64,000 bases of DNA, taken from positions 96,001 to 160,000 of the forward strand of contig CAYLXA010000002.1 of NCBI GenBank assembly GCA_964387845.1, written 5' to 3'. A program made the position numbers and the translations under genes. Numbering within the stretch: the stretch's first letter is position 1; each line of letters begins with the position of its first letter. The notes beneath the pieces are model-generated. The model was not told the DNA's origin. It saw only the letters and a program-made list of their open reading frames with translations, and did no database searches. The stretch comes from an uncultured bacterium. GTDB lineage: Bacteria > Omnitrophota > Omnitrophia > Omnitrophales > Abzuiibacteriaceae. Positions 32,771 through 38,221 of this stretch are shown here, piece after piece.

Positions 32771-33706
32771 ATGAAACTTGTTTTTTTTGGCTCTTCCGAT
32801 TTTTCCATTTCTGTATTAAACGTGCTCACGGACTCTGATCATCAAGTCGTGTGCATCGTCACAACGCCGCCCCGCAAAAAAGGCAGGGGACAAAAAGAAT
32901 CTCCGACGGTCGTGCAAAGCTGGGCCGAAAATAAATCAATTCCCGTTTTAGCGCCTGAAAAAATTAATACGCCGGAATTTGTCGAAAAAATAAAATCCTT
33001 ACAACCGGATTGTTTGGTAGTGGCTTCGTATGGAAAAATGATTCCTGATGCGGTGTTAAAAATCCCCGCACAGCAGCCGCTGAATGTACACCCCTCCTTG
33101 CTTCCAAGGTATCGAGGTGCAGCGCCCATCGCGCGGCAGCTTTTAAACGGAGAAGCGATCAGCGGCGTCACAATTGCACGCATCACATCAAAATTGGATG
33201 CCGGTGAAATCATTGCCCAGCAGCAAGTTAAGATTCTGCCGGATGATAATGGTATTTCGCTCGCCCTTCGGCTGGCAAAATTGGGCGGAGATCTAGCGCT
33301 TAAAGTACTTGGTGAAATTGCCAAAAATAAAATCAAACTTACACCCCAAGATGAATCAAACTCCAGTTATGCCGAGAAGCTCAGGCCTGAAGAGGGGCGA
33401 ATTGATTGGAGCCAATCGGCTGATCAAATAAATCGGCAAGTACAGGCCTTGGTTCCGTGGCCATGCGCTTACGCATTTTTCAATAAAATCCGCATCAAGG
33501 TCCTGGAGGCCGGCGTGGGGCAAAAAATCTCGGAAGATTTACAACCTGGAAGCATTGTTAAAATTGACCCGAAAGGTACCCTTGCCATTCAAACGGGATC
33601 GGGAATCTTAAATCTTAAGACAATTCATCCGGAATCAGGAAAAGCAATGAATGCTTATCAATTCGCGCTCGGGCGGCATCTGAAAGCGGGCGATCTTTTC
33701 TTATGA
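32771..33706 (+). CDS. fmt: methionyl-tRNA formyltransferase
   Basis: MKLVFFGS N-terminus, NVHPSLLPRYRGAAPI, C-terminal Fmt domain; start at 32771 (track start 32705 overlaps def). Confidence 0.9.
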   Translation: MKLVFFGSSDFSISVLNVLTDSDHQVVCIVTTPPRKKGRGQKESPTVVQSWAENKSIPVLAPEKINTPEFVEKIKSLQPDCLVVASYGKMIPDAVLKIPAQQPLNVHPSLLPRYRGAAPIARQLLNGEAISGVTIARITSKLDAGEIIAQQQVKILPDDNGISLALRLAKLGGDLALKVLGEIAKNKIKLTPQDESNSSYAEKLRPEEGRIDWSQSADQINRQVQALVPWPCAYAFFNKIRIKVLEAGVGQKISEDLQPGSIVKIDPKGTLAIQTGSGILNLKTIHPESGKAMNAYQFALGRHLKAGDLFL

Positions 33707-34860
33707 ACAAAACAAAAATACTACATCTAACGACCCATTTGAATATTGGCGGTATCACAACCTATATTTATTTATTGGGCAAGGGACTTGACTCGGCTCA
33801 TTATGAGACCTCTGTTTTTTCAAGCGGCGGTGAAATGGAAAAACAATTCAACAAGTCCGGAATTCGTACTTACGCGTCACCATTCAGAACCAAGAGCGAA
33901 TTAAGCCCGAAGCTTTATTTCGCCATTCCGGAAGTAATTCGCATTATTAAAAACGAAAATATTAATTTATTGCATGCACACACCCGCGTTACGCAAGTCA
34001 TGGCGTGGTGGATCCAGAAAATCACCGGGATTCCTTATGTCTCAACCTGTCATGGTTTCTATAAAAGACGGCTAGGCAGGCGTTTGCTGCCGGCTTGGGG
34101 CAATAAAGTAATCGCGATTAGCCCGCCGGTGGCTGACTCTCTGGTAAACGAATTTAAGGTTCCTGCTGAAAAAGTTAAAACCATTTTGAATGCTATCGAT
34201 ATTGATACTTTAGAGGATTTGGTTCGACAAAAAAATCAGTCAAGCATTACCATCGAATATGATTTGCAATCCACAAAACCTATTTTGGGAATAGTGGCTC
34301 GGATTGTAAAAGATAAGGGGCATGAATATTTGCTTAAGGCCTTCGCGCAGCTGCTGCCTCAATATCCGGACTTGAAATTATTGGTGGTTGGAACCGGCAG
34401 TTATTTGTCCGACGTTAAAAAGCTGGCTGATCAGTTAAGCCTCACTAAAAATTTAACATTTGTGGGCAATCTTAATGATGTTACGAAAGCGCTGGCAGTG
34501 ATTGATATTTTTATATTACCCGCTGTCTGGCGCGAGGGTTTTGGCTTGTCGATTGTCGAGGCGATGGCATTAAAGAAACCAGTTATTGCAACCAATATCT
34601 GGGCTCTCAATTCATTGGTCCAAAACAAAGTGAACGGACTTTTGATTCAACCCAAAAACGTTACAGAGCTGGCTAGTGCGATTACGGAGCTGATTGAAAA
34701 TCAAGACCTGAGAAGAGCGGTAGGTGAAAAAGCTTACAAAACCGTGCAGGAACAATTCTCAATCAAGCGAATGACACGGGATTTCGATCGCCTATATCAA
34801 CAAATACTGCAATCTGACAGCAGATTAGCCGGCAAGAAATCTTCAGCGATGGCGCGTTGA
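33703..34860 (+). CDS. glycosyltransferase family 4
   Basis: NIGGITTYIY N-term, EGFGLSIVEAMALKKPVIAT (EX7E). Confidence 0.65.
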   Translation: MNKTKILHLTTHLNIGGITTYIYLLGKGLDSAHYETSVFSSGGEMEKQFNKSGIRTYASPFRTKSELSPKLYFAIPEVIRIIKNENINLLHAHTRVTQVMAWWIQKITGIPYVSTCHGFYKRRLGRRLLPAWGNKVIAISPPVADSLVNEFKVPAEKVKTILNAIDIDTLEDLVRQKNQSSITIEYDLQSTKPILGIVARIVKDKGHEYLLKAFAQLLPQYPDLKLLVVGTGSYLSDVKKLADQLSLTKNLTFVGNLNDVTKALAVIDIFILPAVWREGFGLSIVEAMALKKPVIATNIWALNSLVQNKVNGLLIQPKNVTELASAITELIENQDLRRAVGEKAYKTVQEQFSIKRMTRDFDRLYQQILQSDSRLAGKKSSAMAR

Positions 34861-34884
34861 CAGTCTTTTCAGTATCTGTATAAT
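34857..34884 (+). promoter_or_regulatory. consensus sigma70-type promoter TTGACA-N16-TATAAT for gap
   Basis: TTGACA 34857-34862 (overlapping upstream stop), TATAAT 34879-34884; RBS GGAGGAAAA before ATG 34944. Confidence 0.55.
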
Positions 34885-34931: not shown

Positions 34932-36047
<1,116 letters not shown>

Positions 36048-36084: not shown

Positions 36085-36381
36085 ATGCTGAAGTTCCGCC
36101 TTCAAGTAATGAGCCTGAAAAGAATCTTGTTTGACGCTGACGTCGAACAAGTTCATATTTTCGGCGATGAGGGCGAGTACGATCTTTTGGCCTATCACTA
36201 CCCTATTATTGGCGCCTTGCCGGAAGGCGAGGTCCACATCAAAGACCACAAAAACATCCCGCTTCGGGCAGGTGTGGCGCTTTTTCGTCAGAACCGCTGC
36301 CTGATTATTATCGAAGAAAAGGATGCGGAAGGCGCACCAACCGACAAGCCTTCCATCAACCCAATAGGCAAGAAAGACTAG
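36085..36381 (+). CDS. ATP synthase epsilon-subunit-like beta-sandwich protein (orphan atpC-like)
   Basis: 98 aa; pattern LQVMSLKRILFDADVEQVHIFGDEGEYDLLAYHYPIIGALPEGEVHI matches AtpC N-terminal domain consensus (V.S...F.G.V..V...G.EGE.GIL.gH.P....L..G...I); good RBS AAGGTGGGG; not in an atp operon. Confidence 0.4.
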   Translation: MLKFRLQVMSLKRILFDADVEQVHIFGDEGEYDLLAYHYPIIGALPEGEVHIKDHKNIPLRAGVALFRQNRCLIIIEEKDAEGAPTDKPSINPIGKKD

Positions 36382-37143
36382 ATGTGGCTTTCAGCGTTTG
36401 CTTTTATTGTTTCCATCGTTTTTCTGATCCGCAGTCTTGAAATAATTCCCGGCGGCCAGCCGCTTTTAAATGCATTGGTGTGCCTATTTTCACTGTTAGC
36501 AGCCCTCTTCTTTCTTCCTGGCGAGTTGATTAGTTCGGCAATTTTAGAGGGTTTCGGGTGGTTTGTTGCAATCTTTGCCGGCAGTCTTGTTTTGATTGAA
36601 TTTGTTCAATTGATTTTTAAAAGACTTTTGCGGTGGGGATCGCTCCGATTGCAAACCACGGCCGGTCTTTCTCCGGAACATGACGAAATTTGCAAAGCGC
36701 TTGATCACATGGCAAAGCAGAAAACCGGCGCCCTTATCGTCCTTGAACGTAAAGGATCATTGAAGCATTTGTATGAAAATGGGTTTCAATTCGATAGTGA
36801 TGTTCGAGCTGAAGTCATCATCTCGCTTTTCGACAAAAATTCGCCGTTGCATGACGGCGCAATGATTATCAGCCAAAACCGGATCAAAGCATTAAAAATC
36901 ATCCTTCCATTAACTACGCGTTCTGATGTACCGCTCGGGATCGGGACCCGCCACCGTTCGGCAATCGGCCTGACTGAGACAACGGATGCCATTGCGCTTA
37001 TCTCATCGGAAGAGCGGGGCATGCTAAGCATTTCTTACCAAGGCGCTTTGGTAGTAGCCAACTCTAAAAACCAGTTCGCAGAACTCTTAAAACGAGCACT
37101 GAAGGGCTTTCCGATCATTGAGCCTGTGCAAGAGTCTGACTAA
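36382..37143 (+). CDS. cdaA: diadenylate cyclase CdaA (DisA_N/DAC domain, membrane-anchored)
   Basis: 3 N-terminal TM helices; DAC motifs DGAMII and GTRHRSA; translationally coupled to upstream atpC-like gene (TAG-ATG). Confidence 0.85.
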   Translation: MWLSAFAFIVSIVFLIRSLEIIPGGQPLLNALVCLFSLLAALFFLPGELISSAILEGFGWFVAIFAGSLVLIEFVQLIFKRLLRWGSLRLQTTAGLSPEHDEICKALDHMAKQKTGALIVLERKGSLKHLYENGFQFDSDVRAEVIISLFDKNSPLHDGAMIISQNRIKALKIILPLTTRSDVPLGIGTRHRSAIGLTETTDAIALISSEERGMLSISYQGALVVANSKNQFAELLKRALKGFPIIEPVQESD

Positions 37144-37158
37144 TTTTGTCATATTTTC

Positions 37159-37186
37159 TTGATTTTCCGCTAAACTCGCGTATAAT
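37159..37186 (+). promoter_or_regulatory. near-consensus sigma70 promoter TTGATT-N16-TATAAT
   Basis: TTGATT 37159-37164, TATAAT 37181-37186; predicted TSS ~37193. Confidence 0.5.
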
Positions 37187-37209
37187 TACATTACTTTTTG
37201 GAAAACTCG

Positions 37210-37359
37210 ATGGAAAACACTCTGAACCTAAAACACTTTAAAAGCAGTGTAAAACCCGCGACAGGCGCCGTGTCGATGGCGTGGTCTATTATGGGCCACG
37301 GCTATTGTCATCGCCGCAAGCTCGTGGGCTTGAAGGAGGTTCAAGCGTTACTATCGTAA
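37210..37359 (+). CDS. hypothetical 49-aa micro-protein (alternative reading of the same unit)
   Basis: ATG..TAA ORF MENTLNLKHFKSSVKPATGAVSMAWSIMGHGYCHRRKLVGLKEVQALLS; only weak SD (GGAA) 8-11 nt upstream. Confidence 0.2.
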   Translation: MENTLNLKHFKSSVKPATGAVSMAWSIMGHGYCHRRKLVGLKEVQALLS

Positions 37360-37395
37360 AGTAGTTTAAAGTAGTAAAAGCAAAATCAACTTAAG

Positions 37396-37427
37396 CCCAT
37401 GGCTGAAATTCAGTCATGGGTTTTTTT
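37396..37427 (+). terminator. Rho-independent terminator
   Basis: CCCATGGCTG-aaatt-CAGTCATGGG (10-bp stem with one G.U) followed by TTTTTTT. Confidence 0.7.
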
Positions 37428-37445
37428 ATTTTCAGGAGGTTTCAG

Positions 37446-37661
37446 ATGAGACAGACAGCAAAGCTGGTCCCAAAAGCCGGCTTCTTTACGGTCAACAAGG
37501 ACCCGGTAAAATTGACGGCCCTTTTATACCTGCGGGAAGCGCTTTTGGCGGAGCAGTATGAAGAGTGCGCCGAATTTGTGCGGATCGCGGAAGAATTCGG
37601 TGCGCACGGGTTTGAAATCCAGAATTTACTGGAAGACCCGAGGCGCATGCCGAAGGCGTGA
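37446..37661 (+). CDS. small UVR-motif (UvrB/UvrC-like) domain protein, hypothetical
   Basis: 72 aa; LTALLYLREALLAEQYEECAEFVRIAEE resembles UVR motif (E.YE.AA..RD.I); RBS CAGGAGG; track start 37416 lies inside the terminator hairpin so 37446 chosen. Confidence 0.3.
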   Translation: MRQTAKLVPKAGFFTVNKDPVKLTALLYLREALLAEQYEECAEFVRIAEEFGAHGFEIQNLLEDPRRMPKA

Positions 37662-37846
37662 TTTTGGTGCCGGTGTTATGACTTTAACTAATCGCAACTT
37701 GAGATTCCTTGTTCGCCATTGGTTTTTGAAGGGGACGGGTGTGTTCGGGTTTTGTAAAATAGCGCTAGTGTTTATCGGAAGTGAACTATATAATCAAAAA
37801 CAGAAATTATTTTTTACCATTTATTCTATTGACTGCACGATGCCGT

Positions 37847-38221
37847 ATGAATCAAAAAATCGCTCTTTTCCTTTTATTGTCTGTGATTACAAGCTGTTCT
37901 GGAGGGCATGTTCTCGCTAAATGGGCGGTCGTTCAAGCGGAAGACACGTTTGCAAAAGCGTCCGATATGCGCCATGATAAGAACAAGCACGCTGGGCGCA
38001 TCCGCCTTTACGAACGTGCCTGCGCGCAGTTTGTTAAGGCTTATGAATTAGATCCGGGCGTATTTACGCTTTACCGCATTGAAAACGCAATCACCGCCTG
38101 TGCGTGGGCAGAAAACTATGCCGCAAAAGAAATCATGCAGAATTTTGAATTTGATTACATTGATCAACATCCGACCGAAGCCGAATACGGCGATGCCATG
38201 CCGCCCATAAGTTTTGAGTAA
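37847..38221 (+). CDS. hypothetical lipoprotein
   Basis: Signal peptide MNQKIALFLLLSVITSCSG with lipobox-like LSVITSC... Cys; start at internal ATG 37847. Confidence 0.4.
   Translation: MNQKIALFLLLSVITSCSGGHVLAKWAVVQAEDTFAKASDMRHDKNKHAGRIRLYERACAQFVKAYELDPGVFTLYRIENAITACAWAENYAAKEIMQNFEFDYIDQHPTEAEYGDAMPPISFE

Follow-up and report, generated by a model that had tools for sequence, protein, structure and literature searches.

Attenuators of the amino-acid biosynthetic operons (trpL, hisL, pheL, leuL, and thrL; Trp_leader, His_leader, and other families in Rfam) are organized around four RNA segments, in which 1:2 pairing together with 3:4 pairing (the terminator) alternates with 2:3 pairing (the antiterminator); the reading frame of a short peptide overlaps segments 1 and 2 and closes upstream of segment 3, and the terminator stands just 5' of the regulated gene. 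Ribosome-stalling attenuators are also known from translation-stress and antibiotic-resistance genes, including the ermK, vmlR, lmo0919, bmrB-bmrCD, and hflXr leaders, where the leader ORF is free of amino-acid-specific codon runs and works together with a terminator/antiterminator switch. The locus described here, which lies in a 64-kb window (the whole stretch of DNA that was analyzed, 64,000 nt) on a contig from a metagenome assembly, has the structural features of a leader-peptide attenuator: a terminator, an antiterminator, and a short ORF that extends over the antiterminator strand and ends ahead of the terminator. It would follow the four-segment layout of the amino-acid attenuators, with 1:2 as a candidate pairing, but differs from them in several respects: it lacks a run of regulatory codons; the target is a 71-aa protein instead of a biosynthetic operon; the ORF is longer (42-56 codons) and reaches well past segment 2; an SD-like GGAGG is conserved after segment 2; an extra hairpin, P1, competes for segment 1; and the host phylum is Omnitrophota, an assignment based on the nearest named homologs. 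With the stalling attenuators it shares a codon-run-free leader ORF tied to a switch and, as we infer the direction, a downstream gene that would be turned on by slowed leader translation; on the other hand, that gene encodes neither an ABC-F protein, a methylase, nor HflX, and no sign of stall-site or antibiotic specificity was seen. If anything sets the element apart mechanistically, it would be the GGAGG beside the switch strand.

The attenuator family has no match in Rfam 15 and no description in the literature searched, and neither Rfam 15 nor the literature on Omnitrophota and leader peptides yielded a described RNA regulator for this phylum. An anonymous gap of ~300 nt is thereby resolved into a regulatory element whose working parts all have coordinates, and an attenuator family is added from the uncultivated phylum Omnitrophota.

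The intergenic gap and the gene it precedes

The genes of the window are tightly packed, which makes conspicuous the 302 nt between a DAC-domain ORF (DAC/cdaA, PF02457; 36382-37143, + strand) and the next ORF (ATG at 37446). The first-pass annotation had described a gap of ~300 nt after cdaA free of ORFs of 60 aa or more, and none was found; the longest are 49 aa (ATG at 37210) and 53 aa (TTG at 37198). It had also read the interval between promoter and terminator as an unannotated but strongly signalled transcription unit, and the promoter, the terminator, and the fold are all present. The promoter is sigma-70-type and near consensus, as first described (TTGATT-N16-TATAAT, 37159-37186, + strand, 10/12 consensus positions), with transcription predicted to start near 37193. 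Its -35 and -10 boxes are invariant in two related loci, L002 and L005, and 36 of 48 family members have a promoter with at least 9/12 matches in the 100 nt before the leader ATG. The intrinsic terminator is also present, although with other dimensions than the 10-bp stem and 5-nt loop originally given: positions 37393-37406 pair with 37410-37423 in a 14-bp stem closed by a 3-nt loop, followed by a T-run that ends at 37427 (+ strand). The terminator motif occurs once in the 64-kb window and is not a repeated genomic element there. Folding of the transcript 37193-37428 gives a minimum free energy (MFE) of -86.7 kcal/mol (z = -6.3), which none of 200 shuffled sequences equalled.

The position of the element after cdaA could suggest a functional tie to that gene. 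In L002 and L005, the same DAC-gap-71-aa gene synteny is present as in the window, the whole unit is ~89% identical at the nucleotide level, the DAC proteins share 65-67% amino acid identity, and gene callers annotate a 51-aa ORF in the gap. A tie to cdaA was nevertheless rejected, as DAC synteny is lost beyond these two loci: a scan of 185,579 species genomes with the DAC alignment returned 80 loci, the best of which are from Omnitrophota (40-46% identity), and neither the RNA element nor the 71-aa gene was nearby in any of them.

The 71-aa gene behaves differently. It lies at 37446-37661 on the + strand (SD AGGAGG at 37434-37439) and encodes a small Omnitrophota protein with 365 homologs at 55-80% identity, mostly in Omnitrophota and in many cases labelled Omnitrophica hypothetical proteins; a metagenome scan with this family added 80 more loci. 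The upstream neighbors of these homologs vary (PilZ/FeeM on the opposite strand in some, an unknown 574-aa gene in others), yet a 400-550-nt gap with the same features precedes the 71-aa gene, so that the element stands directly 5' of it in at least three different genomic contexts, whatever lies further upstream. Among 68 distinct upstream regions of the 71-aa gene, 56 have the layout of the element and about 12 are without it, and 65 have a terminator, nearly all sharing the 5' arm AAGCCCA(U/C)(G/U)A. The layout common to the 56 consists of a promoter, an ATG ORF of ~42-56 codons, a segment that we call R2 (..GUCAUGGGCUU..), an SD-like GGAGG, and a terminator that contains the segment R3 (AAGCCCAUGA..). 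Because DAC synteny is lost while the element is kept before 71-aa homologs, the element belongs to the 71-aa gene and not to cdaA, and positions 37159-37445 are, on sequence evidence, the promoter and 5' regulatory leader of the gene at 37446.

The 71-aa protein itself has no match in Pfam, NCBIfam, or the PDB. In an AlphaFold2 model (pLDDT 77), three helices follow an N-terminal tail that is basic and predicted to be disordered. Codon differences within the gene family are mostly silent, with 1719 synonymous vs 989 non-synonymous changes, distributed 27/16/57% over the three codon positions. The family also carries an invariant motif, KLTAL..L..A..YE.C..A..FG..E..LE..R, and the model shows a weak but recurring fold similarity to AhpD/CMD-like helices.

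Competing pairings in the leader RNA

Four strands of the leader are relevant to the switch, all on the + strand. R1 (CCCGCGAC, 37255-37262) covers codons 16-18 of the leader ORF and supplies the 5' strand of the helix with R2 that closes a long rod at its base, a pairing present in the MFE structure of the window. R2 (GCUCGUGGGCUUGA, 37320-37333) is the switch strand, which can pair either with R1 in the rod or with R3 in the antiterminator. R3 (UUAAGCCCAUGGCUGA, 37391-37406) is the 5' arm of the terminator and can pair with R4 or with R2, and R4 (UCAGUCAUGGGUUU), together with the T-run, forms the terminator 3' arm at 37410-37427. The R2:R3 antiterminator in the window comprises 12 bp (37322-37333 with 37391-37402). 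Just 3' of R2 lies the SD-like GGAGG (37335-37339), which in the window clade forms the loop of a hairpin at 37328-37346.

Across the family, R2 has the consensus ..GGUCAUGGGCUU.. and is located 56-76 nt upstream of the terminator; in nearly all loci it can form 9-16 contiguous bp with R3, and the distance between the two stays constant. In a 42-sequence alignment, 84.2% of R2:R3 cells are paired, vs 29-47% when the partner is slid, and the pairing contains 75 double-change cells vs 32.3 in shuffles (0/500 shuffles as high). The terminator R3:R4 is paired in 97.4% of cells, with 67 double-change cells vs 24.1 in shuffles (again 0/500); for all these covariation counts, the shuffled and slid-partner controls remove phylogenetic relatedness only in part. 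R2, R3, and R4 vary jointly, in AUGA, AUUA, and ACGA variants, and such a joint change of three strands is expected because R3 must pair with both R2 and R4. Comparison with relatives, a check named in the first-pass annotation, did reveal covariation, which supports the antiterminator and terminator and not a 6S-like rod.

The alternative pairing of R2 is weaker and has modest covariation. R1:R2 is paired in 77% of cells, vs 36-47% with slid partners, and has 25 double-change cells vs 16 in shuffles, a count reached by 8/500 of them. RNAduplex energies of R1:R2 against shuffled upstream sequence are not significant (mean z -0.63). In most relatives, R1 is the 5' arm of a local hairpin, P1 (CCCAUGA..UCAUGG), for which RNAalifold reports compensatory changes. 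Between the ORF start and R2, the RNA has unusually strong structure (mean z = -2.46, with 32 of 48 leaders below -2). A core of CCCAUG/CAUGGG recurs five times, in R1, the P1 3' arm, R2, R3, and R4, with CCC:GGG pairs that are the same throughout. In 43 of 48 leaders, the 21 nt after R2 contain a GGAG or GAGG, vs 1% of control windows in the same ORFs; this GGAGG has no start codon after it, and its reading frame differs between loci. Apart from it, no conserved unpaired core of the aptamer kind is obvious in the family alignment, nor is there an Rfam riboswitch match.

Thermodynamic folding shows a balance between the two states. In the MFE structures of full leaders, the terminator is formed in 45 of 48 and R2 is paired upstream, with ORF codons 7-19, in 41 of 48; when the transcripts are cut after R3, the MFE contains R2:R3 in 31 of 48. 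Mean stabilities are -27.3 kcal/mol for the antiterminator and -22.3 kcal/mol for the terminator. For the full leader of the window, rod plus terminator is the more stable (-86.7 vs -74.9 kcal/mol with the antiterminator forced), and truncation at R3 leaves two competing folds at -70.1 and -66.2 kcal/mol, a close balance whose outcome is sensitive to the exact 5' end assumed. Taken together, the pairing and covariation data make it very likely that the element acts as a terminator/antiterminator transcription attenuator.

A further pairing was noted in the rod of the window clade, where the start-codon region of the leader ORF, CGAUGG (37207-37214), pairs with CUAUCG (37350-37355) just 5' of the leader stop; it would also mask the start site of the ORF and is kept in L002 and L005.

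The first-pass annotation had proposed a 6S-like small RNA as a candidate, a reading that did not survive comparison with relatives. Its basis was real: the hairpin GCTTGAA-GGAGG-TTCAAGC followed by GTTAC is found at exactly 37328-37351, and the E. coli 6S 3' hairpin it cited, CUUGAAC...GUUCAAG-GGUUAC, is correct, since ssrS contains CCTTGAACCAAGGGTTCAAGGGTTAC. A trans-acting small RNA gene, 6S-like or other, would also be in keeping with the rod-like fold (z = -6.3), a length similar to that of 6S RNA, and a promoter and terminator of its own, and a terminated leader of ~235 nt could have a secondary role in trans. The resemblance, however, is limited to 24 nt, and the CUUGAA/UUCAAG hairpin with its GUUAC occurs in the window's own clade only; the family consensus retains only the local 5' hairpin and the terminator, and the rod of the window clade is not conserved as such. 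What is conserved is the terminator, the antiterminator, and the ORF instead of a large two-sided central bubble, and in the loci compared the element always stands in cis before the same protein gene.

Covariance models lead to the same result. A scan of the whole 64-kb window with Rfam 15 gave no match at the gathering score, and a permissive scan of 37050-37500 (E <= 10) returned no 6S (RF00013, gathering score 46.4 bits), in a search where E. coli ssrS, as a positive control, scores 139.8 bits; five relatives of the element gave no match either. 6S RNA was rejected as the identity of the element, as was every known Rfam family, all of which fall below their gathering thresholds, and a trans-acting small RNA gene, whether 6S-like or not, is in our view highly improbable. 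The weak matches in 37050-37500 are to His_leader (RF00514, 27.0 vs a gathering score of 49 bits), trpB (25.4 vs 59), and rnk_leader (17.8 vs 50), all of them terminator-containing leaders whose alignments are driven by the terminator; the His_leader match reflects the four-segment attenuator layout that the two have in common.

Coding signature of the leader ORF

The leader ORF (37210-37359, + strand) was found as first described, an in-frame ATG..TAA ORF of 49 codons preceded by a weak SD (GGAAAA). After crossing R1 and R2, it reaches its stop codon ahead of R3. The arrangement is general: in about 50 of 56 loci, R2 lies inside an ATG ORF of 42-56 codons whose stop is 13-27 nt beyond R2 and 21-44 nt short of R3, a complete layout that arises in 7% of dinucleotide shuffles. 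A frame open over the 120 nt that end at R2 is present in 56/56 loci, vs 62% of dinucleotide shuffles and 26/56 on the reverse strand. Most leader ORFs have an SD or a near-leaderless start.

The starts themselves fall at two distances from the promoter. Where an SD is present, the ORF starts 17-29 nt past the -10 box, and the ORFs without one (L088, L125, L126, L128, L134, L138, L164, and L169) are nearly leaderless, since they begin 9-16 nt after it; the pattern suggests that the leaders use two modes of initiation.

The encoded peptide, unlike the open frame, is poorly conserved. The frame across the invariant UGGG of R2 differs between subfamilies (phase 1 in 28 loci, phase 2 in 17, and phase 0 in 11), and the C-terminus therefore reads ..MGLRR.., ..CGLLR.., or ..SWASRE... 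Codon differences comprise 402 synonymous vs 999 non-synonymous changes, distributed 39/23/38% over the codon positions, so the synonymous-codon conservation that a micro-protein would have shown did not appear. Within the window clade, amino acid identity of the leader peptide (71-78%) is below nucleotide identity (83-84%). A profile search with the 51-aa peptide among 5.8 billion proteins recovered two close relatives only. It is the paired segments (CCC AUG and CAU GG) that encode the residues that do recur (K-P-M, M, and W), and the leader peptides of the family contain no runs of regulatory codons.

These results bear on the proposal, offered in the first-pass annotation as an alternative to the small RNA, that the gap holds a stand-alone micro-protein gene, in which a functional 49-aa peptide is made from a dedicated promoter-terminator unit, complementarity to the terminator being a by-product. 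The conserved open frame upholds one half of that proposal and the poor conservation of the product undoes the other. The ORF is indeed kept together with its start signals, a mid-peptide motif (K-P-M..M..W..C.H) is found in all subfamilies, second codon positions change least, and some leader peptides, such as peTrpL, are functional in their own right. The recurring residues, however, are explained by paired RNA (CCC AUG for P-M, and UGG GC in R2); the C-terminal third is read in three frames with non-synonymous changes in excess; amino acid identity falls below nucleotide identity; homologs amount to two close relatives; and R2:R3 covariation is not accounted for by coding. We judge a micro-protein gene improbable. 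The signature is instead that of an ORF which, as predicted from these comparisons, must be translated but whose peptide matters little. For annotation, it follows that the 46-51-aa "genes" called in relatives are leader ORFs.

Proposed attenuation and the signal sensed

We propose that transcription would begin near 37193 and yield a leader with two mutually exclusive folds. In the OFF state, R2 would be paired with R1 at the base of the rod, leaving R3 free to pair with R4 as the intrinsic terminator, and termination would release a leader RNA of ~235 nt. In the ON state, R2:R3 pairing would prevent the terminator from forming, and RNA polymerase would read into the 71-aa gene. On balance, we favor a ribosome- and leader-ORF-dependent, trp-like attenuator, in which a ribosome translating 37210-37359 would set the outcome: when lagging or stalled over R1 or the 5' part of the ORF, it would free R2 for R3 and permit read-through, whereas a ribosome over R2 would block the antiterminator and lead to termination. 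The GGAGG adjoining R2 may hold the ribosome there through the anti-SD. Given that no run of regulatory codons is present, the sensed signal is probably general translation status.

Masking of a ribosome in silico, with a 28-nt footprint on transcripts cut after R3, is consistent with this sequence of events. The antiterminator is the MFE structure in 70-97% with the ribosome upstream of R2 and in 0% with the ribosome covering R2, and it comes back when the P site has moved ~8 or more codons beyond the R2 start. A ribosome at the stop codon, with the same 28-nt footprint, no longer covers R2 in most loci, and the OFF step therefore needs either GGAGG/anti-SD contact or timing. When a masked ribosome is placed on full-length leaders, equilibrium folding gives the terminator almost everywhere, wherever the ribosome is placed, which makes that calculation uninformative for a kinetic switch and the truncated transcripts the better guide.

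The same switch could instead be set by a sensor other than the ribosome, a factor acting in trans that shifts the balance between rod and antiterminator, with the ORF incidental or secondary. Candidate factors are the 71-aa protein itself (autoregulation via the CAUGGG/CCCAUG repeats or the GGAGG), another RNA-binding protein, or a small ligand. Sequence-specific recognition could be reflected in the five CCCAUG/CAUGGG copies with their invariant CCC:GGG pairs; the predicted basic, disordered tail of the 71-aa protein, the unusual structure between the ORF start and R2, and a GGAGG that no start codon follows all accord with such a factor. However, the open frame, its start signals, and the position of its stop are kept far beyond chance, and a pure RNA or protein sensor needs none of them; no unpaired core of the aptamer kind stands out and no Rfam riboswitch matches; and the invariance of CCC:GGG is also explained by the two or three partners that each strand has. 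We therefore hold a non-ribosome sensor to be unlikely and retain the ribosome-dependent attenuator as the preferred reading.

Within the ribosome-dependent attenuator, a more specific role for the GGAGG can be envisaged. The leader may sense translational capacity instead of an amino acid, with the GGAGG parking a terminating 70S or a free 30S on R2: plentiful, fast ribosomes would then lead to termination, and with ribosomes scarce or stalled, R2 would be set free and the 71-aa protein turned on. This version is speculative, and we would not expect it to be the correct one; if it were, Omnitrophota as a whole would have a previously unknown translation-stress factor in the 71-aa protein. More generally, the element singles out a widespread and highly conserved 71-aa protein as one that the cell would control tightly, and read-through upon disturbed leader translation, as proposed above, would hint at when that protein is needed.

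Several observations concern the neighborhood of the locus. All ORFs of 150 aa or more in the 64-kb window are on the + strand, with the sole exception of 32842-33336 (- strand), which overlaps a + strand ORF and is probably spurious. A perfect 12/12 sigma-70 promoter (TTGACA-16-TATAAT, 34857-34884) lies just 5' of the GAPDH gene (34944-36047). Directly upstream of the DAC gene, a 98-aa ORF (36085-36381) encodes the N-terminal beta-sandwich domain of ATP synthase epsilon (PF02823) and no other domain; it lies apart from any ATP synthase operon in the window and is syntenic in L002 and L005. On the 3' side of the 71-aa gene, the ORF at 37781-38221 begins with a lipoprotein-like signal (..LLLSVITSCSG) and has no family match; its start differs between gene callers (124 aa in L001).
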